Below the pieces are notes generated by a model. It saw nothing but the letters and a program-made list of their open reading frames with translations. It was not told the origin of the DNA and ran no database searches. This document shows, piece after piece, positions 89 to 20,897 of a DNA stretch of 34,353 nt. Origin of the DNA: Candidatus Hydrogenedentota bacterium (GTDB lineage: Bacteria > Hydrogenedentota > Hydrogenedentia > Hydrogenedentales > SLHB01); NCBI GenBank assembly GCA_045863335.1, contig BTVY01000059.1:1-34353 (forward strand). The letters run 5' to 3'. A program made the translations under genes and the position numbers. Position 1 is the stretch's first letter. Each line of letters opens with the position of its first letter.

Positions 89-2689
89 TTACACCGCACT
101 CATGGCGGGTAGCAGGGCCACTTCTCCGGGGCGCAGATCCAAGACGAAGCCTCGCTTCGGGATCGTCTTGACGACGCCTGCGCGGTGGGGCGCGACTTCC
201 TTGATGCCCGCCAGCAGCCTTCGTTTCTGGAAGTGCATCTGGTTCTGCTCGACGACAGTCTCGCCCCAGATTTCTTCGTAGATGGTGTCGTAGGGGATGC
301 ACTCGCCGGGCGATCCGGCCAGGGCGCGGACCAGGCGGTACTGTTTGTCCTGGAGTTTGACCCGCTTGCCCTCCACGACGATCTCGTTCGGACGCCGGTC
401 GTCGACGACAAGGACCGGCAGGGAGGGGGGTGGGTGTACCTCCCTGCCGGGCGGGTGTTCCTTGTCGTCGTGGTTCCGCAGCCCCCACGATTTGAGTTCA
501 TGGGCGGTAGCGGCCGGGACCCACTGGTCGAGTAGGTGGGTGGGGGCCCCGGCAAGGGCGGGTGGGGTATGGAGATCGTTGGTTTCCAGGGCGATGATCG
601 CGCTACGGTCCAGTCCGGGCAAGCGGAGCCGGGCCAACGCGAGGCCCTCGTCACGTAATCCATGCTGTACACGCTCGGCGAGGCGGGTCAGGCGGTCAAT
701 AAAGTCGTCCTGAGCGCCAAAGGCCGTGGCAAGCGCGGCGGTTGCGTCAATGATCCATGACATTTGTTCTGCGGCGGACACAATCTGGCCGAGTAAGGTG
801 TGGTACTTCTCTTCGATGTCGTATATCGATGACTCGTCAATCCAGTCCGAAAGGAATAAAGCGATCTTGATGGCCCGCACTTCTTCGAAGAAGGGCATCA
901 AGGAACTGTTCCGGAGGCGGTTCAAGGGGACGTCGGCCTCGGAATCCTCATCCAGAGTAATCCGTTTCAGGACGCCCGGATAATCCGCGCGGTCGTATTC
1001 GCGAGAGGTCAGGGTCACCTGAAGCATACGCCCGTCAGCGGTCAAGGCGGCCGCGAGGATGAGGTCGAGGTCGCTCCAGATGCGCGTTTCCGATTCGTGG
1101 AGCCAGTGGGACAGTTCTTGGGCGGTGGCGATGGAGATGCCTTTCGAGGCGACCGCCTGGCCCAAGGGCGTCGCGCCGAGGCGACCGGACCCGTCGCGGG
1201 TGATCATGCCGGTGTCGATGGCGCGGTTGATGGCCGCGCGCACGCGGAACTCGGTTTCCTCCAGGGGGACCGACTCCGCCCAGATCCAGGTGCCGGTGAG
1301 GGTCTTCTCGAAAAAGGCGTGCAGCTCTTCCTCCGTCAGGCAGGAGCGCGACGCGACCAGCCGGAGCACGTGATTCTCCAGGGGCTCCTTTGCTAGGCGC
1401 GGCTCGACCTTTTCGCGTTCTCCGTCCACGTAGCGCCGCCAGAGGGTCGTTTCGTCGTAGGGCGTCACGCCGATGAGGATGGACCGGCCAAAGGGGATGC
1501 CCGAACCGTAGCGTCCCGCGCGGCCGCCCATGTTCTCGTATTCGGAGCGGAGGATGGGCGTTTTCCAGGGCATGCCGAATCGATTGTCGTACATCCATTT
1601 GTCCGCCGCGATGAAGACGTTCTGCGCGGGGAGGTTCATGCCGACCGCCAGCGTGCTCGTCGAGATGAGCGCCTTCACCTCACCGGAGCGGAAGGCCTCT
1701 TCCACGATCCGCCGTTCCTCGCCCGACAGGTCCGCGCTGTGAAAGGCCACGCCCGTCGACAGCGTGTCCATCAGGCTGTCGCGGCAATGAGTGGTTTGGA
1801 GTTTGCGCAGCGCCTCGATGGCCTTCTCCGCGGCAGGTTCGTGGACGCGCCCGGCCAGCAACTCGGCGCCGCGCCGCGCCTCGTGCTTCGCCTTCACGAA
1901 GACGAGACAACTCTCGCCCCGTTCGACGAAGGCGCAGAGGTTGTCCGTGAGGATCTCCCAACTCGAATCGGAATGGGCGCCGACGAGGGGCTCTTCGGCC
2001 TGGCTGTATTCGTTGTAGGTGCGGTATTTGAACACGCCCTCGTGCAACACGCCGAACCGCAATTCGACGGGCCGCCGTTCGTGCAGCGCCAGGTCGGCGT
2101 TCATCCACTGGGCCAGCTTGTCCGCGTGGCCGATGACGGCCGACAACCCGATCATGCGGCACTTCGTCTGGAGGATGCGCGTCAACAGCAGTTCCACCTG
2201 CGCTCCCCGGTCCGGGTCGGACAGGATTTCCAGTTCGTCCACGATGACCAGTTCGACCTCTTCCAACCGTTCCGGCCGCCGCACCAGCAACTGCGCCAGC
2301 TTCTCGTACACGACGACCGCAATCGAGAAGTTGCCCGATTCGAGGCGTCCATCAAACTCGCGCCGGTCCCGGGTCGAGATGATGACGTCGATACCGTAGG
2401 GCGTGTACTTCTCCTGGAAATCGACGAACTTCTCCTCGGCCAGCGCCTTCAGCGGGACCACGTAGATGACCTTCTTGCGCCGGAGGGCCGTCTGGATGGC
2501 CGCCATCTCGCCGATGAAGGTCTTCCCCGAACTCGTCGGGGCCTGAAACAGCAAGTTCCCGCCTTTAAACAGGTTATGACGTTTCACCGCCATCTCCTGC
2601 AACGGCAGCAACACCTCGCTTTCCCGTTTCTGCCACAAACAAATGATTTCCGGCGGAATGTCGTATCGAAGCAGCTCCGTCATTTTCAT
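89..2689 (-). CDS. Ski2/Hel308-like SF2 helicase with C-terminal OmpR/PhoB-type winged-helix domain
   Basis: Q-motif LLPLQ, Walker A APTSSGKT, Ia PLKALAEEK, motif II DELE, III SAV, V STLAVGMNLPA, VI NMGGRAGR. C-terminal ~100 aa resembles Trans_reg_C (YRLVRALA...EEIWG...KTIPKRGF). Start moved to ATG 2689 because GGAGG lies just upstream and the promoter is at 2779-2807. Confidence 0.9.
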   Translation of the reverse strand: MKMTELLRYDIPPEIICLWQKRESEVLLPLQEMAVKRHNLFKGGNLLFQAPTSSGKTFIGEMAAIQTALRRKKVIYVVPLKALAEEKFVDFQEKYTPYGIDVIISTRDRREFDGRLESGNFSIAVVVYEKLAQLLVRRPERLEEVELVIVDELEILSDPDRGAQVELLLTRILQTKCRMIGLSAVIGHADKLAQWMNADLALHERRPVELRFGVLHEGVFKYRTYNEYSQAEEPLVGAHSDSSWEILTDNLCAFVERGESCLVFVKAKHEARRGAELLAGRVHEPAAEKAIEALRKLQTTHCRDSLMDTLSTGVAFHSADLSGEERRIVEEAFRSGEVKALISTSTLAVGMNLPAQNVFIAADKWMYDNRFGMPWKTPILRSEYENMGGRAGRYGSGIPFGRSILIGVTPYDETTLWRRYVDGEREKVEPRLAKEPLENHVLRLVASRSCLTEEELHAFFEKTLTGTWIWAESVPLEETEFRVRAAINRAIDTGMITRDGSGRLGATPLGQAVASKGISIATAQELSHWLHESETRIWSDLDLILAAALTADGRMLQVTLTSREYDRADYPGVLKRITLDEDSEADVPLNRLRNSSLMPFFEEVRAIKIALFLSDWIDESSIYDIEEKYHTLLGQIVSAAEQMSWIIDATAALATAFGAQDDFIDRLTRLAERVQHGLRDEGLALARLRLPGLDRSAIIALETNDLHTPPALAGAPTHLLDQWVPAATAHELKSWGLRNHDDKEHPPGREVHPPPSLPVLVVDDRRPNEIVVEGKRVKLQDKQYRLVRALAGSPGECIPYDTIYEEIWGETVVEQNQMHFQKRRLLAGIKEVAPHRAGVVKTIPKRGFVLDLRPGEVALLPAMSAV

Positions 2690-2778
2690 CGCGCAACGCC
2701 TCCAAGGGCTCTCGACGTCAAAGTACCCGCAACCCCGGCTCAGGGGCCCCGAACAGGCCACCGGGCATCACAAAGGGC

Positions 2779-2807
2779 AGTATACTGAAAAAAGATTCAG
2801 TTGTCAA
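2779..2807 (-). promoter_or_regulatory. Sigma70 promoter of the helicase gene, with a palindromic operator candidate in the spacer
   Basis: Minus strand TTGACA (2807-2802), 17 nt, TATACT (2784-2779). Inverted repeat ACTGAA-N6-TTCAGT at 2784-2801. Confidence 0.85.
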
Positions 2808-2898: not shown

Positions 2899-3177
2899 CT
2901 AGGTTTTGTTTATGTGGGAGTTGTCGTTGCCGGGGGTGAGGTCGTCTTCGATTTCGCCGATGTCGGCGAGGCAGAACCAGGCGAGGCGTTTGGAGCCGCA
3001 GCGGGGGCAGCGTTTGCGCCAGAGCGTCGTGATGGGGGAGATGGTGACGACGTCCCCGGCTTCCGCACAGTTCAGGCAGAATTGGCGCTCTCGGTTGATG
3101 TAGGAGCGGAAGCATTCGCGGATGCGTAGAAGCAGCGTTAACTTCGTGGGGTGATCTTTTGTGGACACGGATTTCAT
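2899..3177 (-). CDS. Small zinc-ribbon-like hypothetical protein (92 aa)
   Basis: CLNC...RCPRCG pairs, acidic tail, promoter-like element directly upstream, and similarity to ORF 9335-9589. Confidence 0.65.
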   Translation of the reverse strand: MKSVSTKDHPTKLTLLLRIRECFRSYINRERQFCLNCAEAGDVVTISPITTLWRKRCPRCGSKRLAWFCLADIGEIEDDLTPGNDNSHINKT

Positions 3178-3354: not shown

Positions 3355-3514
3355 CGGGGACGGCAGGGACAACAGGACGCAAGGGACCTAAAGGACTTAA
3401 GGGACCTAAGGACTCAAAGGACCGAAAGGACGCCAAGGACGCAAGGGACGCAAGGGACCCAAAGGACGCCAAGGACGCAAGGGACCCAAAGGACGCAAAG
3501 GACGAAAGGGACGC
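3355..3514. repeat. Degenerate 9-bp tandem repeat (consensus AARGGACGC), 18 GGAC-anchored units
   Basis: GGAC at 3358, 3367, 3375, 3384, 3393, 3402, 3410, 3419 and every 9 nt to 3509. Confidence 0.92.
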
Positions 3515-3570
3515 ACGGAATACTGGGACCAGTGACGACACTCGTATTCGGCAGAGACTTAAAATACGGA

Positions 3571-11206: not shown

Positions 11207-14200
11207 TCAGGTGACCAGATCCCGCACCTTGGTTAACAGTTCGGCACTGGTGAATGGCTTTGTCAACAGGGGCACGCCCTTTTCCGGCGCGATTTCCCGA
11301 TCGAGGATATTGAAGTCGTATCCGCTGATGTGAAGCACGGGCAGACCGGGGCGCAGCGTGTGGATCTGTTCCCGGACTTGGCGTCCGCTCAGTTTGGGCA
11401 TCACCACGTCGATCACGCAGGCATCAATGTGGCCGGCATTCCGGTGAAAGGCTGCGACGGCCTCCTCGCCGTTAGCGGCGGGGATCACGCGGTACCCGCC
11501 TTGTTCGAGGATACGGATAGCGAGCATTCGGACCTGGGGATCGTCTTCGGCGAGCAGGATCGTTTGTCCCGATGCGGGAGGGATCGCAGAGGCGGCATCC
11601 TCGGTGTTCTGGTGCGACTCTTCAGGTGTGCGCGGAATGTAGATCCGGAACGACGTGCCGGTACCCAGTTGGCTTTCGACGTGGATAAGTCCGTTGTGGT
11701 TGGTGGTAATCCCGTACACGGTGGCGAGGCCTAAGCCCGTACCTTGGCCGATTCCTTTCGTCGTGAAGAACGGGTCGAAAATACGGTCCATATGTTCGGC
11801 AGGGATTCCGGCTCCCGTATCGGATACTTCGAGGACGGCATAGTCGCCCGGTCGGGCCCATGAATTTTCGCGGCAGAAGGTTTCATCGAGATCTGCGCCG
11901 TAGGTGGCGACGTTGATGTGCCCTCCTACGGTGAGGGCGTCCCGGGCGTTCACGCAAAGGTTGATGAGGATTTGTTCCATCTGCCCCGGGTCCGCACTGA
12001 TGGTCAACGATTCGCGCGGAGGCGCGATGCGTAGCTCGATGTGTTCGCCGATGAGCCGTTTCAGCATCTTGCCCATGCTGGAAACGACTTCGTCGAGGTG
12101 AATAGACTGCAACTGAGGTTCACCCCGTCTACTGAACAATAGAAGTTGGCGCACGAGCGACTCGGCGCGCGCGCAAGCCTGAATCGACTCGCTCAAAAAA
12201 GCGGCCACGGGATGTCCCGCGGGCAGGTCGCTGTGCGCAAGTTCCGTATATCCGCGGATGGCGGTTAACAGGTTGTTGAAATCATGGGCAACACCGCCCG
12301 CGAGTTGGCCGACCGCTTCCAGTTTTTGCGATTGACGGCGTTGGGCCTCCAGTTCGCGCCGCTCCGATTCGGCAACGATTCGGTCGGTGACGTCCCGGTA
12401 CATGATAACGCCGCGGACCTCGCCGTGGGGGTTCACGAATTGGGAACCAATGACTTCGACGTGACGAAACGTGCCGTTGCGATGGCGAATGCGGCATTCG
12501 AGCTTGTTGGGGTCTTTGGGGCTAGTGAACACGAGTTGCAGGCCGACGCGCGCCGCGGGCTGATCGTCGGGGTGAACGTAGTCCAGCACGTTGGTGCCGA
12601 TGGATTCTTCGCTGCCGAATCCCACGACGCGTTCGACTGACGGGCTGACGTATTCAATGATCCCGTCCTCACGGATGGTGGCGACCACGTCCGAAACGTT
12701 TTCGATCAGCGAGCGGAATCGCTCTTCGCTCCGCTGAAGTTCGAGTTCAGCCTTCTTGCGGTCCGTGATATCGCGGGCGAAGGCGCAGATCAGTTTCTGC
12801 CCTTCAAGCTCGTTCATATTCAATGAGATTTCCACGGGGAATCGTGTGCCGTCCTTCCGCTGGTGGAACGACTCGAACCGCAATCCGCCGTGTTGCTTGA
12901 GTTTTGTGTAGATCTTTTGGTGGCGTTCCGCGGGAAAATCGGGATCGATGTCCAGGACACCGCGTTGCAGAAGTTCTTCGCGAGTGTAGCCCAGGGCGCG
13001 GCAGGCGGCCTCATTCACATACAAGAAATTGCCGTCAGGTCCGTACATGTACGCGGCGTCAGAAACCGCTTCGAGGGCGAAGTGGGCCAATCGGGCCGCG
13101 TGTTCGGAGGCTTTGCGGCGGGTGATGTCGCGCGTGGTCAACAGAATCCCGTCGATTCCGGGCCGGGCGATGAGGTTAACGCCAGTGGCTTCGAGGTCGA
13201 CCCAGTGGCCTTGTGCGTGGCGAAACCGGAATTCGGTTGGTGTGTTGGGATTGGCGCGGTGGACGACTTCCTGGAATGCGGTTTTGACGGCCGGATGGTC
13301 GTCCGGATGCACGAAGTCGAGGCCGATCTTTCCGACCAGATCGTCGGGCGCGTAACCAAGTACGCGGGAGCAGGAAGGCGTGATATGCCGGATTCGCACC
13401 TGGTCATCGACGACCCAGATGACGTCGGTCATTTCGTCCAGAATCGCGCGATGCCGTTCCTCGCTTTCTTCGACGACCCGTTGCCGAATTGCACGATCGA
13501 GGGCTCGGGCAAGGTCCGCCGCTGCGATCCGGAGGAAGCCGATCTCGAGATCGTCCCAATGGGCCGCGTTGGCGGCGCGCTCCAGCACCAGGGCGCCGAG
13601 TAAGTCGTCTCCAACGGTGAGCGGAAGAAGGACGAAATGTCCATCCGATGACGCGAACAGGCATCTGCGTGCCTCCGGCAGGCGATCCAGCATGCCGGTT
13701 GGCGTTTCTCCCTGGACGAGCTCGTCGAGCCAGTTTCGAAGGGTTGCCGCATGGGGATCGACGGTGTTTGACACGCATTCGGCCACTTCAGACCGGTGGT
13801 CATTCCAAATGGTGCGGACGACCAGCCGGCCAGGGTCGTCGTTATCGTCTGGGTACACGTACAGGGCGACGCGCGCGGCGTCCGACGTGGATCCGACAAT
13901 TTCGGCGAACCCGCAATAGACGTCCGCCTCGAGATCGGAAAGCAGGAGTTGGGTGGATATGTTCAGGGCTTTCAGGTACCGCTCGCTCTGGGCGCGGGCC
14001 TGCTCGGCACGCTTACGGTCGGTCACATCTGCGAACAATACCAGGAGGCAATTGGTTGCCGCCCGGTAGGCGTGAACTTCGTAGGCTCCGGCGATTTCAC
14101 CGTGATCGTAGTTGACGCGTTCGGTACGCCAGGGATCTCCGGTGGCTAGCACGTTCCGGTATTGATTCGGAACTTCCGTCCCGGCCAGGCCGGGGAACGC

Positions 14201-14401
14201 GGATTCGAGGGCCTTGCCAATGAGTTGCTGATGGTCGATACCGAGGATGGTGTCCGCAGCGCGGTTGGCGCCGACGAATACGAGGTCATCTTCCATGTGG
14301 CGAAGGTACACGTGGATCCCAAAGGGGCATGCGTCGAACCCGGACTGCAAGAACGAGCCCCACTCGTCGTGGTTCTCCGGTACGAGTGAATCTTCCTGCA
14401 T
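11207..14401 (-). CDS. Cytoplasmic multi-PAS/GAF hybrid histidine kinase with C-terminal receiver
   Basis: PAS, GAF-like, 3x PAS, H-box [12 protein letters not shown]-box [41 protein letters not shown]. Confidence 0.95.
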
Positions 14402-14703
14402 GTACTCAGGCCTCTTCGAATTGCACTTCGGGTCTAGTCGAAACGGCGATCCACCTCCCGTACGGAATTCACGTTCCGTGGCATCCCCGCTCGAGTACTG
14501 GATAGACCATCGATACGTTACGACTCAGTGGAAGCATTGTACACGGAAATCGCAGAAAAGTGAGGAGTATATTTCCGGCGGGGTCGTCGTGGACGCTGCG
14601 CATGCAAACCGCGTGTTGTTCTGCGATTTCGAGTTTCCGCACAACTATCGATGAATCACGAAGTTCCGGTGGGACTTGCGTGGCCGTGTGGGAGATAGTG
14701 GGG

Positions 14704-16995
14704 TTAACTCTGATCGACGACGCTCCGGATACTACGTGCCAAATCAGCGCCGATCACCGGCTTCATGACGTGGTAGCGGACAGAATTATTGTCGCCTGAG
14801 GTGTCCCGGAGGGATTCGGCGAATCCGCTGCACAAGATAATGGGTATGTCGTCGCGAACGGTGCGAATGCGTTTTGACAGTTCAATGCCTTTCATGCCGG
14901 GCATCATCTGGTCGGTAACGACGACGTCGAATTCGGCGGGGTTGGTGGTGAAACGTTCCAAGGCTTTTAGGGAGTTTGTTTCGATCGTGACCCGGTATCC
15001 CAGGCGCTCCAGGGCGGTTTTTGCAAATTCGGCGATAGGACTCTCGTCGTCCACAAGCAGGACGTGTTCGGTGCCGCGCAGGGATCCGATGGGCGCAGGA
15101 GGTTCGCCGGTGGCTTCGCCGGCGAGGACGCATGGCAGCAAGACGGTAAAGGTCGAGCCTTCGCCGGGTTCACTATAGACATGGATGACGCCCTGCAGGT
15201 CGGTGACGATACCGTGGATCGTGGCCAATCCGAGGCCGGTTCCCTCGCCCCGTTCCTTGGTGGTGAAGTAGGGTTCGAAGATGCGCGCCTGGGTTTCTTC
15301 CGTCATACCGTGCCCCGTGTCATGGACTTCCAATCGTACGTATTCCCCGGGGGCCAGGTTGGGGTCTTGTTGTACTTCGTCGTCGCCGATTTTGATCTGG
15401 GAGAGGCGCATTACGAGCTTGCCGCCCGTATCCCGCATGGCATGGTATGCGTTTGTCCCGAGGTTCATGAGAATCTGGTGGATTCCGGTAGGGTCTGCAA
15501 GTACGGGAAGACAACTGTTGTCGATATTCTCGTGAATTTCGATCGTGGAAGGGATGGAGCCGCGTAGGAGCTTGAGGGCTTCGCGCATGATGGATTGAAC
15601 GCGGACGGGGCGGATTTCGCGATCGGTCTGTCGGCTAAACTCCAGGATTTGGGAGATCAGTTCGCGGGCGCGCTGGCTGGCTTTGGCAACTTCAAGCAGG
15701 CTGGAACGCACCTCATTGCAGCCTTCGGGGAGATCGGTCATAGCGATGTCCGTATAGCCCATGATGGCGCTCAGGATGTTGTTGAAGTCGTGGGCGATTC
15801 CACCGGCCAGGGTCCCGATGGCCTCGAGTTTCTGAGCGTGCTGCAACCGTTCTTCCAGCGCAAGCTGCGAGGTCATGTCGCGAGCGACCGCGAGGAAACT
15901 GACAATTTTTCCGTCCGCGTCGCGGACGGGAGAGGCGGTCACGTCCTCGGTGCTTACGGTGCCGTCGGGTTTTTCGATGTGAATGCGGCCGGTCCAAGTT
16001 TTTCCTGAAGTGACGGCTTTCCAGAGGGCACGCAGCACGGAACCGTCGGAGCGTTCGACGAGGAGTTTCCACAGGTTCTTTCCGAGCGTATGTGCCCGAG
16101 GGATACCGGAAACCTGCTCCCACGCGGGGTTCACGTATTGGGTGTAGCCGCGAACATCGGCAATGACGATCGCTTCGCCGGCCTGCTCGATGGCCGCCTC
16201 GAGTTGACGGCGCTCGTCTTCGACGCGTTTGCGGTCCGACACGTCCTCGACGATGGCGAGGATGTACTGTTCTCGAGTCGATGGGACTTCGACGAGGGAG
16301 TGGGTGGTCCGGCACCATACGCGGGAGCCGTCCTTTCTGAGGAGTTCGACCTCGCATGTCGAACCGTCCGCTTCGACGCCAATCGCCTGGAGCCGTTCCC
16401 GTTCCGCGTGGGAACGGAACGGTGGGCAGACAAACTCTTCGAAACGGCGCCCCAGGAGTTCGTGTTCCACGCAGTCCAGCAATTGGGCGAATCGGCGATT
16501 CACACGAAGGATCGATCCGTCGGTCGTCATGTGCGCCATACCCACCGCGGCCTGTTCAAAACTGCTCCGGAACCCGGCCTGACTCTCCGCCAATAAATGG
16601 CGGGTTTTCATGTGGGCATGCATTCGAACGCGAACCTCTTCGAACTGGTATGGCTTGGTGATATAGTCGCATCCGCCACAGTCGTACGCGGTCACCTTGT
16701 TGAAGGTTTCGCCCAGGGCGCTCAGGAAAATTACTGGAATATCCTGATACCTGGGGTCGCGCTTGAGCTGGCGGCATACCTCGTATCCGTCCACGTCCGG
16801 CATGTGGATATCCAGCAGCACGAGGTCGGGAGGAGACGCCTCGACGCTGCGGAGCGCCTGGCGCCCATCGCGTGCCACCCGGACTTCGAAGCCTTGATCG
16901 GCCAGCATCTCGCGCAGCACGCGCAGGTTTTCCGGATTGTCGTCAACGATGAGTACCGTTGACCGGTCCAAATCGCGCGCTTGAGCATCGTTCAT
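14704..16995 (-). CDS. REC-PAS-PAS-HisKA-HATPase-REC hybrid histidine kinase
   Basis: N-terminal REC VLIVDD..LDIHMP..KPY, H-box [18 protein letters not shown]-terminal REC LLVDDE..TDQMMP..KP. Start overlaps the upstream stop (ATGA). Confidence 0.95.
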
Positions 16996-19900
16996 TGGTC
17001 GTCCTCCTCGTCGGGGAAAAGTGCTTCGAGATTATGTAAGGCGAATTCCTCAGCGCGCTGGCTGATGAGCGCGGCCAGGCCGGGCGCGGACTCGCGCACG
17101 TCCTCCGCGATCGCGTAGGCTTCGTCGATACTTCCGGTCACGATCGCGTTCCGCAGTTTGTGCCGGACACCTACTGGAAGGTGTCGCAGGGCCCGCCGCG
17201 CCAGGTCAGCAGAAGCAACGGGGTCTGGTCCGGTTGTTTCCACGACTTCGTCTTCGTAGTCGAACTCTACGTTGCCGTGGATACGGATCAGTTCAAACAG
17301 GTCGTTTTCGCGGAATGGTTTCCGGAGAAATGCGTCGGCGCCTTGCGCAAGCACCGCGGCGCGCTCGTCTTCGAGCGTGCTTGCCGTGACCGCGATAATG
17401 CATGCGGGCCGGCCGGACTGGGCGGCGCGCATTTTACCGATGGCATCGCGGCCGTTCATTACGGGCATGACAAGATCGACGAGAACGATCTGCGGTTTCC
17501 AGTCGACGAATGCCCTGACCCCCCGTTCGCCGTCTTCCGCGGCGCGGGTGTTGAACCCCACTTTTTCAAGCAAGCGGCATAGCAAATCGCGGTTCGTTTG
17601 CCGGTCGTCGATGACGAGCACGCGCTGTTCGCCATACCGGGGTCGCAGGCGCTTGACGAAGCAGGCCGAATCTCTCGACTCGACGAGCGACGGGTCGCCA
17701 ATTCCGGCGCGCATCTCGAATTGAAACCGGCTTCCTTTGCCGGGCTCGCTTGATACCGTGATGTCTCCGTCCATCAGCCTTGCGAAACTGCGGCTGATGG
17801 GTAGGCCCAACCCGGTGCCGCCCCGTCGTTGTGCGGTGGGGCCGGCCTGTTCGAAACTTTCGAAAATGGCATCCCAATCGCCCGGGTCGATGCCGCAGCC
17901 GGTATCTTCCACATCAATGTCTAGCGTGACCTCGCCGTTTTGCGCACGCGTGATTGCGGAAGCGCGGATGGTGATGCGGCCGCGATCGGTGAATTTGACG
18001 GCGTTTCCGACCAGATTGACGAGGATCTGGCGGACGCGGCTTTCGTCGGCGACGACATACTGGGGGACATTGGAATCGATGTCCGTGACCAGTTCCACGC
18101 CCTTGCCGTTGGTGCGAACGCGAAACATGGTTTCCAGGTCGTGCAGCAGTGCGTGGAAGTTAAAGGTGGACGGGTGCAGTTCAATTCGACCGGCCTCGAT
18201 CCGCGACATTTCGAGGACGTCGTCGATCAAGGTCAAGAGATGATCGCCGCTGCGGCCGATGGCTTCGAGGGCATGCCGCTGGTCGGGATACTGCCCCAGT
18301 TCCCGCCGCAACAATTGGGTATAGCCGAGAATCGCATTCATGGGTGTCCGGATCTCGTGGGACATGTTCGCCAGGAAGGTGCTTTTTGCCCGGTTCGCGG
18401 CCTCGGCCGACTGTTTGGCTTCCTTGAGGGCGGCCTGGGCGGTGCGCCAATCGGTGACGTCGTGTGTGACGACGAGTGCATGGGTGACGCGACCCGAGGC
18501 ATCGGCACAGGGATACATGGTTACCTCGCAAGATCGTTCACCGCGAGCGGGAAACTCGACGGTTGATTCGTAGGAGACGACTTCTCCATTCAGGCAGCGG
18601 CCAAGATCCGGCCAGATGTGATTCTGGGCGGCCTCGGGTGGCCATACTTCCGAAATTGACTTGCCGATCACATTCTGGCGTTCCATGGACATGGCGGCAC
18701 ACCACGCGGAATTGACGACTTCATAGCGCCCATCGGAATCGATCACACTCATCATGTCGTCGACGGTGTTCACGATGAATTCGTAGCGGAACAGGATGGA
18801 TTCGGCGCGTTTTCGCGCGGTCATGTCCGACCCGACACAGAGGATTTCCTCGATGTTTCCTTTGGGGCCGTACAGGGGGCGGTTCGTCCATGCAACCCAG
18901 ACCCGCTCGCCCGAGCGCGTGATGTTCTCGTTTTCGTTGATGACATATCGATCGGGATCGCGCGCGAGGTCTTCCATGAGCGCGCGCAAGTCCCGGCCTT
19001 GGGATTCGGATTCGGGCACGATGGTGTCGAGTATCTTCTTCCCGAGAAGTTCGCCGCTGGGAAATCCGAAGAAACGTTCGCCGAAAGCATTGATAAACGT
19101 GACGGTGCCATCCGTCTTCATTCGCAGTATGACGCTGTTCGCGCTTTCGACGAGGGTCCGGTAGTCCGATTCGGTTTGGTTTCGCGCCGCTTCGGCCGCC
19201 CTGCGGGAGCGGATTTCCTTTCGAAGACGGTGGTTGTGAAGACCGAACAGCAGGAAAAAGAAGAGCGCGGCGGCGACCGCTGCGACGGTGTAGCGGAGAA
19301 CGCGCTGGGGGCTCAAGCCCGGTTCGACGGACACGCCCACCCATTTCTGGCGAATGGCGTGGGCCTCTTCTTCCGTGATGCTGGCGAGGCCCTTGTTGAG
19401 TATGGAAACGAGTTCCGGCCAGTCATTGCGGACGGCGAAGTGGAGGGTGTTTTCGCCTTGGTCGACCGGGGCGGCGATGCGGATGTTGGTCAATCCGAGC
19501 TTGCGAATCCAGTACGTAATGGTGGCCACGTTTCCGACTGCCGCATCGACTTCCCCGCGAGACACGGCGGCGAGTGTGTCCTGTACGGTATCGAAGAGCA
19601 CGGGGGAGAGGGAGGAATTCTCCACAAGAAACCCGTGGTGCGAAGAGTTCGCCTGTACCGCGACGCGCATTTTCGCCAGGTCTCCGATGCCGGCCACGAG
19701 GGGGGCGTCCACTCGTGTGACGGCAACGCGGTAAAAGGAGAGGTAGGGATCGGTAAACAGGAATCGCTCCGCCCGTTCTTCGGTAGTGGCAACACAGGGG
19801 AGCACGTCCAGTTCGTGGGCCATCGCCAAGGAGGAGGCCTCTTCCCAGGAGCGATCGTGCACGACCTGCAATGCGATGCCGAGCCGTTGGTTGAGCAGGT

Positions 19901-20897
19901 CAATGTAGTCGGAGGCCATTCCCTGGTAGCTGCCGTCTTCCGCGACGAATTCGAAGGGCGCAAATTCCGGGTCGATACCGAGTCGGATTGCGGGGTGCGC
20001 TTCGATCCAGTTTTGTTCGGCTTCGGTGAGTTCGACCCACTGCGGCACAACCGCGTACTTCGCGATGATGGCCCTGATCTCGGGCGCGGTGAGACTGTCG
20101 ATGGCCCGGTTCAATATCTCCACGAGGGGAGCGTAATCGGCTCGGACGCCGATGGAGAGTTGAAAGGAATCGAGTTCCGCGCACCAGACCGGCTTGAGTC
20201 CAGTGATCACATTGCGATCGATTACATATGAGGAAACAGCCGTGTTTCCGATGTACGCATCGGCGTCGCCGTTGTCCACGGCAAGCAAGGCCTGCAACGC
20301 GTTGGAAAACTTCGATAGCCGAATCTCGGGATACTCCGATTGCAGAATCTCCTGGGTGTAGTAGCCGCTTTCGACGGAAACCACTTTTCCTGCCAGGCCG
20401 TCCAGGTCCGCGATATCGAGGTTTTCGGACTGCACGTAGATCGCGTGGGGGAAGCGCCACAGCGGTTTTGTGAACAGGAACTCTCTCTTGCGGTCCGGGC
20501 TGACGCCCATGCCTGGGCACACATCCAGTTCGTGGTTGCGCAACATCTTGTAGAGTTCCGGCCACGGACCGGTTACGTACTCGACTTCCAAGCCGGTGCG
20601 ACGACAAAGCTCGGTCAGTAGGTCAGCGCTGATACCCGTATAGATACCGTCTGCGTTAACGAATTCAAACGGAGGCCAATCCTGGGTGGCTGCCACCCGG
20701 ATCGCGGGGTGCTCCCGGACCCAGGCCTGTTCGGATTCGGAAAGGGGAATGGAGGAATTCGGGCCATTCGACGCGCGAATCGGAGGAGCGGGGTCGACCG
20801 GCGCGTTCCCGTCCAGCGGTGCGGACAGGGCGGAGAACCGCAGCGACGAAATCGCTGCCAGTGCCATAACGACAAAGAAATCCCGGTAACGTCCCAC
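16992..20897 (-). CDS. BvgS/EvgS-like membrane hybrid sensor kinase (2x periplasmic solute-binding domain, TM, 2x PAS, HK, REC)
   Basis: DWPPFEF and PEFAPFEF solute-binding domains, TM AVAAALFFFLLFGL, H-box FLANMSHEIRTPMN, GGTGLGL, REC VLVIDD..DLVMP..KPF. Confidence 0.93.
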   Translation of the reverse strand: MGRYRDFFVVMALAAISSLRFSALSAPLDGNAPVDPAPPIRASNGPNSSIPLSESEQAWVREHPAIRVAATQDWPPFEFVNADGIYTGISADLLTELCRRTGLEVEYVTGPWPELYKMLRNHELDVCPGMGVSPDRKREFLFTKPLWRFPHAIYVQSENLDIADLDGLAGKVVSVESGYYTQEILQSEYPEIRLSKFSNALQALLAVDNGDADAYIGNTAVSSYVIDRNVITGLKPVWCAELDSFQLSIGVRADYAPLVEILNRAIDSLTAPEIRAIIAKYAVVPQWVELTEAEQNWIEAHPAIRLGIDPEFAPFEFVAEDGSYQGMASDYIDLLNQRLGIALQVVHDRSWEEASSLAMAHELDVLPCVATTEERAERFLFTDPYLSFYRVAVTRVDAPLVAGIGDLAKMRVAVQANSSHHGFLVENSSLSPVLFDTVQDTLAAVSRGEVDAAVGNVATITYWIRKLGLTNIRIAAPVDQGENTLHFAVRNDWPELVSILNKGLASITEEEAHAIRQKWVGVSVEPGLSPQRVLRYTVAAVAAALFFFLLFGLHNHRLRKEIRSRRAAEAARNQTESDYRTLVESANSVILRMKTDGTVTFINAFGERFFGFPSGELLGKKILDTIVPESESQGRDLRALMEDLARDPDRYVINENENITRSGERVWVAWTNRPLYGPKGNIEEILCVGSDMTARKRAESILFRYEFIVNTVDDMMSVIDSDGRYEVVNSAWCAAMSMERQNVIGKSISEVWPPEAAQNHIWPDLGRCLNGEVVSYESTVEFPARGERSCEVTMYPCADASGRVTHALVVTHDVTDWRTAQAALKEAKQSAEAANRAKSTFLANMSHEIRTPMNAILGYTQLLRRELGQYPDQRHALEAIGRSGDHLLTLIDDVLEMSRIEAGRIELHPSTFNFHALLHDLETMFRVRTNGKGVELVTDIDSNVPQYVVADESRVRQILVNLVGNAVKFTDRGRITIRASAITRAQNGEVTLDIDVEDTGCGIDPGDWDAIFESFEQAGPTAQRRGGTGLGLPISRSFARLMDGDITVSSEPGKGSRFQFEMRAGIGDPSLVESRDSACFVKRLRPRYGEQRVLVIDDRQTNRDLLCRLLEKVGFNTRAAEDGERGVRAFVDWKPQIVLVDLVMPVMNGRDAIGKMRAAQSGRPACIIAVTASTLEDERAAVLAQGADAFLRKPFRENDLFELIRIHGNVEFDYEDEVVETTGPDPVASADLARRALRHLPVGVRHKLRNAIVTGSIDEAYAIAEDVRESAPGLAALISQRAEEFALHNLEALFPDEEDDQ

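Follow-up and report, generated by a model that had tools for sequence, protein, structure and literature searches.

Hel308 and HELQ are regarded as repair enzymes of archaea and eukaryotes. What, then, might a Hel308-like gene do in a bacterium, and what would its product gain from ending in a domain of the type found in OmpR and PhoB? The question is raised by a gene on the minus strand (positions 92–2689) of the stretch of DNA analyzed here (hereafter, the window), which comprises the first 34,353 bases of contig C59 (BTVY01000059.1) in the 6.75-Mb, 105-contig genome of a Candidatus Hydrogenedentota bacterium. The gene is real, well conserved, and not a one-off. We propose, with a probability of about 0.6, that it encodes a LexA-controlled, damage-inducible repair helicase of the Hel308 type, whose C-terminal winged helix-turn-helix (wHTH) domain would serve as a tethered anchor on duplex DNA. 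The new aspects are a Hel308-type helicase that is bacterial, wHTH-tailed, and apparently SOS-controlled. Full-text literature searches (supplements excluded) returned neither a bacterial Hel308–wHTH fusion nor a Hel308 under LexA, in agreement with an initial reading made from the sequence alone (hereafter, the sequence-only reading), which knew of no characterized protein of this architecture; the texts that contain both 'Hel308' and 'LexA' concern yeast splicing.

Domain architecture of the helicase

The 866-amino-acid product is, to judge from its predicted structure, a bacterial member of the Hel308 structural family. Pfam recognizes DEAD (residues 30–186, E-value = 1e-22), Helicase_C (residues 304–395), and Helicase_dom4_arc (residues 600–677, E-value = 2.8e-14), and the archaeal Hel308 models of NCBIfam are by far the best named matches (E-values of 3.5e-110 to 2e-62, residues ~10–700). 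In a sequence search of the PDB, Pyrococcus furiosus Hjm ranks first (E-value = 2.9e-71), followed by Archaeoglobus fulgidus Hel308 (2p6r), 9b15, and 2va8; all four alignments stop at query residue 695–697, leaving the tail uncovered by solved structures. An AlphaFold2 model of the full-length protein, built from a 56-sequence alignment (predicted local distance difference test [pLDDT] 92.4; predicted template modeling [TM] score 0.82), reproduces the five-domain Hel308/Hjm fold of RecA1, RecA2, winged helix, ratchet, and helix-hairpin-helix (HhH) domains. Foldseek places it closest to Hjm (2zj8; E-value = 4e-44, TM score of 0.90 on the target) and, across 2zj8, 2va8, 2p6r, and 9b15, gives E-values of 4e-44 to 3e-38 and target-normalized TM scores of 0.84–0.91, with superpositions that span about 750 alignment columns. 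Set against the archaeal structures as a group (2zj2/2zj8, 2p6r, 2va8, and 9b15; TM scores of 0.86–0.91 on the target, 26–28 per cent identity), the helicase has the same five domains in the same order. HELQ and the helicase domain of Pol theta show a more distant likeness, the latter with a TM score of about 0.75.

The five-domain scheme is set out in a 2026 review (PMC13623763), according to which domain 5 acts as a brake and in annealing, and Ski2-like helicases occur across bacteria, archaea, and eukaryotes. RecA-like domain 1 of the helicase (~residues 1–205; 2075–2689, minus strand, as are all following domain coordinates; borders approximate, from the model) holds motif I (APTSSGKT) and motif II (DELE, residues 151–154; nt 2228–2239), and RecA-like domain 2 (~residues 206–408; 1466–2074) holds a beta-hairpin at residues 363–378 and motif VI (NMGGRAGR, residues 386–393; nt 1511–1534). 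Winged-helix domain 3 (~residues 409–507; 1169–1465) is recognized from the secondary structure of the model and its superposition on Hjm/Hel308; at the equivalent position, two relatives (P0129 and P0175) match HTH_61. Ratchet domain 4 (~residues 508–678; 656–1168) carries a long helix (residues 633–656) with the conserved W645, which like W616 and G634 is conserved in at least 90 per cent of members. HhH-like domain 5 (~residues 679–743; 461–655) includes the degenerate HhH motif LRLPGLDRSA (residues 688–697), which contains an invariant R695 and aligns with the domain-5 segment of P. furiosus Hjm; the alignment to Hjm and A. fulgidus Hel308 runs up to query residue 695–696. The separation hairpin, the ratchet Trp, and the domain-5 Arg of archaeal Hel308/Hjm are thus likewise present. 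Because the catalytic essentials are invariant or at least 90 per cent conserved in 56 diverse members (G55, K56, D151, E152, S183, A184, R390, and R393; G55 and K56, like R390 and R393, are invariant, and D151 and E152 reach at least 90 per cent), a conservation that extends to motifs I, II (D and E), III, and VI, we take the motor to be active, as far as sequence conservation can indicate.

Compared with archaeal Hel308, the protein has ~120 extra residues, made up of a linker and the wHTH domain. The Pro-rich flexible linker (residues 744–757; 419–460) is predicted to be disordered, with pLDDT below 50 at residues 744–755. The wHTH domain of OmpR/PhoB type (residues 758–860; 110–418; recognition helix at residues 816–832, wing at residues 840–850) shows, at residues 760–860 of the model, the expected succession of three strands, helix 1, a strand, helices 2 and 3, and a beta-hairpin wing. 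Pfam Trans_reg_C matches residues 774–850 with 27.9 bits (gathering score of 26.2) over model positions 1–77 of 77. Modeled alone from a 38-sequence alignment, the tail reaches a pLDDT of 92.8 with the same sheet-helices-hairpin topology, and its Foldseek neighbors in the PDB are the DNA-binding domains of ArlR, BaeR, CadC, GlnR, ToxR, YycF, and PhoB (E-values of 3e-6 to 6e-4). There are 60 matches at E-values of at most 0.001, those among the matches listed being OmpR/PhoB-type DNA-binding domains or response regulators. The same architecture recurs in nearly all of the 120 closest database proteins, and the Trans_reg_C match is therefore not a chance one. The tail shares topology and Pfam family with OmpR/PhoB effector domains, including those of the receiver-less CadC and ToxR, but is fused to the C-terminus of a helicase and not to a receiver or a membrane sensor.

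The architecture predicted in the sequence-only reading (a Hel308-type core, a degenerate HhH, a Pro-rich linker, and an OmpR-type wHTH at about nt 130–415, that is, residues 759–854) is therefore borne out by the profile, AlphaFold, and Foldseek comparisons, and the two motif deviations that it pointed out are present. A prediction of a complex between the core (residues 1–745) and the wHTH domain (110 amino acids), made without control runs, scored 0.01. Release of the wHTH domain alone from an internal start was considered and rejected: the sole in-frame ATG, GTG, or TTG in residues 691–800 is a GTG at V772, which lacks a Shine-Dalgarno sequence.

A putative LexA operator in the promoter

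The reading frame, which ends in a stop codon at 89–91, 88 nt before the end of the contig (which cuts off the downstream context in this assembly), is a single ORF that starts with an ATG at 2689. A ribosome-binding site, GGAGG (2699–2703, minus strand), lies 9 nt upstream of this ATG, and GGAGG/GGAGA-like sites precede the ATG in the orthologs listed. An alternative, longer GTG frame reaches 2761, but its start would fall only 18 nt after the –10 hexamer, inside the promoter region. The promoter itself (TTGACA-17 nt-TATACT; 2779–2807, minus strand) is of the sigma-70 type and agrees with the consensus at 11 of 12 positions. Its spacer contains the palindrome CTGAA-N6-TTCAG (2785–2800), which extends to a perfect ACTGAA-N6-TTCAGT. 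The palindrome is, putatively, the LexA (SOS) operator of this organism, placed within the promoter of the helicase gene, and sets the gene apart from archaeal Hel308.

The box is conserved among orthologs. CTG-N10-CAG lies between TTGAnn and TAnnnT in 36 of 39 unique Hydrogenedentota-type upstream regions, and the strict form CTGA-N8-TCAG is found in 29 of them. The three exceptions are a box at another spacing, a GTGAA-N6-TTCAC, and a sequence from another phylum. The GTGAA-N6-TTCAC form is seen in genus g53 of family f8 (e.g. L039), where it replaces CTGAA-N6-TTCAG in the promoters of divergent copies (34–39 per cent identity, 905- to 955-aa frames) whose core and tail match the query as two separate stretches.

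In the genome of the window (G000), the box is found directly 5' of genes with links to DNA damage, the full set being lexA (Peptidase_S24 and LexA_DNA_bind), dinB (IMS), an MrfA-like helicase gene (DEAD and MZB), a gene for a DinB-family protein, a radical-SAM/SPL-like gene, a 64-aa ORF of no known family, and the helicase gene under study. The recA upstream site, GTGAAAAGATTTTCAG, is the same box with one mismatch. Besides our helicase, the candidate SOS regulon comprises lexA, dinB, the MrfA-like gene, the DinB-family gene, the radical-SAM/SPL-like gene, the 64-aa ORF, and (with the mismatch) recA, with sites at C94:369, C27:88184, C2:70421, C8:41225, C21:32720, C14:49291, and C8:62736. The lexA genes of all five other Hydrogenedentota genomes compared (from four genera) carry CTGAA-N6-TTCAG just after the –10 hexamer. 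A weight matrix built only from the six lexA boxes, without any helicase site, puts the helicase site in 7th place when every position of the genome is scored. Six more of its top ten sites belong to lexA and recA, to dinB and the DinB-family gene, to the radical-SAM gene, and to the 64-aa ORF; one of the remaining three lies within a coding region and two are unclear. A separate perfect palindrome of Escherichia coli type, CTGTACATATGTACAG, occurs at C16:100183 between uvrB (158 nt away, on the opposite strand) and a PIN-domain gene (14 nt away), and may be either a LexA-like site or a toxin-antitoxin operator.

Orthologs outside of the phylum carry a different box. In four Armatimonadota and one Sumerlaeales genome, the wHTH-bearing orthologs are preceded by a CGAAC-N4-GTTCG-like box of the Cheo type (CGAACACGTGTTCG, CGAACACTCGTTCG, CGAACGCGCGTTCG, GGAACGTATGTTTG, and AGAACATTTGTTCT), a box type that serves as the LexA site in Gram-positive-type bacteria. 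The box is placed between –35- and –10-like hexamers in the four Armatimonadota and just upstream of a TTGACA in the Sumerlaeales genome, where the start codon is uncertain. The lexA genes of the same five genomes also have a Cheo-type box. Judging by these upstream sequences, LexA appears to control the helicase family in at least three phyla, in each case through the operator of that phylum.

Distribution of the family and changes in motifs II and VI

Of the 135 genomes of the phylum that were searched, 127 have a match to the helicase (E-value of at most 1e-20), as do 81 of the 86 high-quality ones. A single match per genome is usual, and the majority of the complete matches extend to residue ~860 of 866, and thus include the wHTH domain. 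The closest database relatives carry the names Candidatus Hydrogenedentes or Hydrogenedentota, and family proteins from all sources are named merely 'DEAD/DEAH box helicase' or 'helicase'. An exhaustive search among cluster representatives yielded 1220 clusters at E-values of at most 1e-30. Trans_reg_C (Pfam, E-value of at most 0.01) was detected in 31 of 55 sampled representatives of at least 800 amino acids, with a best score of 50.5 bits, and a family-specific profile detects the wHTH tail in 69 of 137 representatives of 50 per cent identity clusters. Named full-length relatives come from Armatimonadota and Candidatus Sumerlaeales, and shorter matches to the query from Coatesbacteria, Zixiibacteriota, a Myxococcia bin, and others. 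The Hel308–wHTH architecture is present in Armatimonadota and Sumerlaeales and, to judge by partial matches, probably in further phyla.

The C-terminal slot is occupied differently in some relatives. In a subfamily of ~1065-aa proteins, a Hel308-like core with DExQ carries a C-terminal HATPase_c domain (a GHKL/histidine-kinase-type ATPase) in place of the wHTH domain; nine of the 120 proteins listed belong to it (P0143, P0387, P0389, P0392, P0393, P0394, P0396, P0400, and P0407). A singleton of 1067 amino acids (P0146) ends in a sigma-54-interaction AAA+ domain. Separately, a few Hydrogenedentota orthologs contain one in-frame stop: a TAA in G072 (C33:305327–307897) and a TGA in G024 (C41) and G025 (C183), both of genus g39, whose interrupted copies are only 35 per cent identical. 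These may be pseudogenes, sequencing errors, or cases of recoding.

Archaeal Hjm and A. fulgidus Hel308 have DEIH and Q-M-x-GRAGR in the columns where the helicase has DELE and NMGGRAGR, so that it differs from them in a DExE (DExQ in the wider family) in place of DExH and an Asn in place of Gln. The sequence-only reading had suggested that these two changes may compensate for each other. We aligned every fetched relative that is 650 amino acids or longer and tabulated both motifs. All 120 close homologs (61–91 per cent identity) have DExE, and their motif VI starts with N in 111 cases and with S in nine. Among the 137 cluster representatives, DExQ is found in 119, with E, H, D, S, or N in the remainder; the initial N of motif VI is present in 121 and is paired with Q, E, H, or D in motif II. 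Relatives of an Armatimonadota-type member (n = 102) give the same picture, with DExQ in 98 and N in all but a few. As far as this alignment goes, the Asn is a signature of a large bacterial family that is mostly DExQ, and the Glu is a later change limited to the Hydrogenedentota clade. Because the Asn is family-wide and the Glu clade-limited, a compensating E/N pair private to this protein is not supported. A coupled switch from His and Gln to Gln and Asn at the base of the family is possible, and we propose that DExE or DExQ together with the motif VI Asn corresponds, in this family, to the DExH/Gln nucleotide-sensing pair.

Proposed role and competing explanations

We hypothesize that in undamaged cells, LexA would occupy the CTGAA-N6-TTCAG palindrome in the promoter spacer and block transcription, and that DNA damage would free the promoter by RecA-stimulated cleavage of LexA. 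The protein, which has kept the ATPase and translocation elements of Hel308 (motif I, the Asp-Glu of motif II, the motif VI arginines, the separation hairpin, the ratchet helix with its Trp, and the HhH domain 5), would then load on single-stranded DNA, be it at a gap, a 3' tail, or a stalled fork, and, to judge from its fold, move in the 3'–5' direction as Hel308 does. On its ~14-residue disordered linker, the wHTH domain may hold or orient the motor at junctions of single-stranded and duplex DNA. This is the weakest step of the scheme; a role as duplex anchor is favored because the motor is intact, because the gene has neither a conserved target operon nor a conserved second motif, and because the domain is basic (pI of 9.2, net charge of +3) on an acidic core (pI of 5.5). 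The LexA-box promoter fits the repair half of the suggestion, made in the sequence-only reading, of a site-targeted repair or defense helicase. The helicase would not stand in for an absent RecQ, RecG, or PriA, since the genome encodes each of them; it would add to the usual bacterial set.

Parallels exist among SOS-regulated accessory helicases of bacteria in superfamily 2 (SF2). MrfA/YprA-type helicases and Lhr are damage-inducible 3'–5' motors of SF2 with accessory C-terminal domains, which is what we propose for the helicase, and the MrfA-like gene of its own genome shares its box. The accessory domains differ, with ratchet, HhH, and wHTH domains in the helicase versus the Zn-binding domain of MrfA or the tail of Lhr. 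Damage inducibility of Lhr in mycobacteria is described in PMC5758891.

Several points weigh against this proposal. The helicase scores far below the NCBIfam equivalog cut-offs for Hel308 (369 versus 887 bits for NF002654 and 269 versus 1200 bits for NF040935), and lacks the motif II His and the motif VI Gln of the DExH and QMxGRAGR that mark Hel308/Hjm. The strict box CTGA[AT]-N6-[AT]TCAG occurs 10 times in the genome, versus ~14 expected from base composition; since it is not over-represented, the regulon call rests on the placement of the sites and on the genes that follow them. The net charge of the wHTH domain is a mere +3 and ranges from –5 to +6 among 38 relatives, and OmpR-type domains are normally sequence-specific transcription activators. 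Eight of the 135 genomes have no match; the high-quality set accounts for five of these (four 95–100 per cent complete), and the gene is therefore dispensable or was sometimes missed. With RecQ, RecG, and PriA all present, there is no obvious gap to fill. Finally, we infer that LexA binds, that the gene is induced, that the protein is an ATPase with the proposed polarity, and that its wHTH domain binds DNA.

The strongest competitor, which despite a low probability still carries weight, is a helicase-coupled transcription regulator, in which the Hel308 core would be the input (sensing single-stranded DNA or damage, or remodeling promoters at the expense of ATP) and the wHTH domain the output, acting on specific sites and on RNA polymerase, so that the protein would be a second-tier SOS regulator. 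The nearest folds of the wHTH domain are all regulators, and to our knowledge, Trans_reg_C domains occur almost only in transcription factors. Conservation of its recognition helix is good within the phylum (EPNQMHFQKR-like), E814 and Q817 being invariant even across phyla, and the C-terminal slot can hold signaling-type modules in relatives, namely the HATPase_c domains and the sigma-54 AAA+ domain described above. However, all ATPase motifs are conserved in the helicase, and the sigma-54 fusion is a lone sequence on one contig whose nearest relatives lack that domain. Moreover, inspection of the ortholog regions upstream of the –35 hexamer and in the 5' leader revealed no shared motif beyond the LexA box.

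Nor does the neighborhood point to a regulated operon. We compared the window with 20 further loci of the phylum (±8 kb, all ORFs of at least 60 amino acids), and in these 21 loci no neighbor gene or operon is conserved: none is common to more than six, and only shadow ORFs of the helicase and patchy neighbors recur. The latter are paralogous histidine kinases, a ~690-aa phosphodiesterase-family protein downstream (five loci), and a 148-aa ORF (four loci). The window itself encodes, at 11207–20897 on the minus strand, three consecutive large hybrid histidine kinases (1064, 763, and 1301 amino acids) with many PAS domains, one of which also has two periplasmic solute-binding domains. No candidate target repeat for the wHTH domain is conserved near the gene in the 21 loci and the ortholog upstream regions. 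A tandem array of a 9-bp unit (AGGACGCAA, 15.9 copies, 76 per cent matches) at 3374–3515 was rejected as such a target, as the genome holds 75 arrays of this kind (period of 8–10 bp, at least four copies), several at contig ends (unit ACACGGACCT and similar), and the short repeats 5' of several orthologs are built of different units. The array lies between an OmpA-like gene and a 92-aa ORF with a CxxC...CxxC pattern (2902–3177, minus strand) just upstream of the helicase promoter and on the same strand. This zinc-ribbon-like ORF was rejected as a helicase partner, as tblastn found no homolog of it in the fetched loci; it has short, weak tblastn matches elsewhere in the genome (best E-value = 0.047) and a sub-threshold Pfam match, and may not be a real gene.

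A somewhat less probable relative of the regulator model is a DNA-damage switch contained in one protein: the Hel308 motor would be its sensing half, ATPase cycles dependent on single-stranded DNA would gate the engagement of specific sites (or of RNA polymerase) by the wHTH domain, and the protein, itself freed by LexA cleavage, would run a second wave of the damage response. If so, the GHKL-tailed sister subfamily would be the two-component version of the same idea.

We consider it doubtful that the wHTH domain is instead a protein-docking module that brings the motor to RNA polymerase or a repair factor, perhaps in order to remove stalled transcription complexes in the manner of Mfd or UvrD. 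In OmpR/PhoB domains, it is the loop joining helices 2 and 3 that touches sigma or alpha subunits; its counterpart in the helicase (WG..VVE) is conserved (W808 invariant, V813 in at least 90 per cent), and the modest net charge of the domain would suit docking. On the other hand, no partner gene is conserved nearby, and the genome already has Mfd-like and UvrB genes.

Ski2-like helicases include many RNA enzymes, and an RNA helicase of the Ski2/Suv3 kind that acts in RNA decay or surveillance would accord with the DExQ of the wider family, as in Suv3, and with a weak Pfam DEXQc_Suv3 match (26.1 bits versus a cut-off of 27). Such a function is improbable, as the best sequence and fold matches are to the DNA helicases Hel308/Hjm and to the helicase domain of Pol theta, and they include the HhH domain 5; moreover, the gene appears to belong to the LexA regulon. 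According to PMC10946056, which treats archaeal Ski2-like groups only, ASH-Ski2 is without this HhH domain 5.

Least probable is an anti-phage helicase of the Hachiman (HamB) or a related kind, the defense half of the suggestion in the sequence-only reading: HamB shares a Ski2-like SF2 core with the helicase, but its PADLOC profiles (E-values of 1e-34 to 1e-15; 2e-13 for the HamB structure, PDB 8vx9) cover only parts of that core and fall far behind the archaeal Hel308 profiles (1e-110), no HamA-like (DUF1837) partner adjoins the gene in the 21 loci, and its near-universal, phylum-wide presence, which is not patchy as in a defense island, its lack of a conserved neighbor, and its SOS-type promoter together argue strongly against a defense system.

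A LexA-controlled repair helicase with a tethered duplex anchor thus remains our preferred reading, and a structurally complete Hel308 relative is a near-universal gene of a bacterial phylum. As a by-product, the analysis supplies Hydrogenedentota with a candidate for the LexA box and with a first SOS regulon. The family also offers two natural experiments: how a Hel308 motor is affected by a duplex-binding domain that is permanently tethered to it, and how DExQ or DExE with Asn replaces the DExH/Gln nucleotide sensor. If LexA control holds, fork or gap processing of the Hel308 type would be part of the SOS response in many uncultured bacteria.

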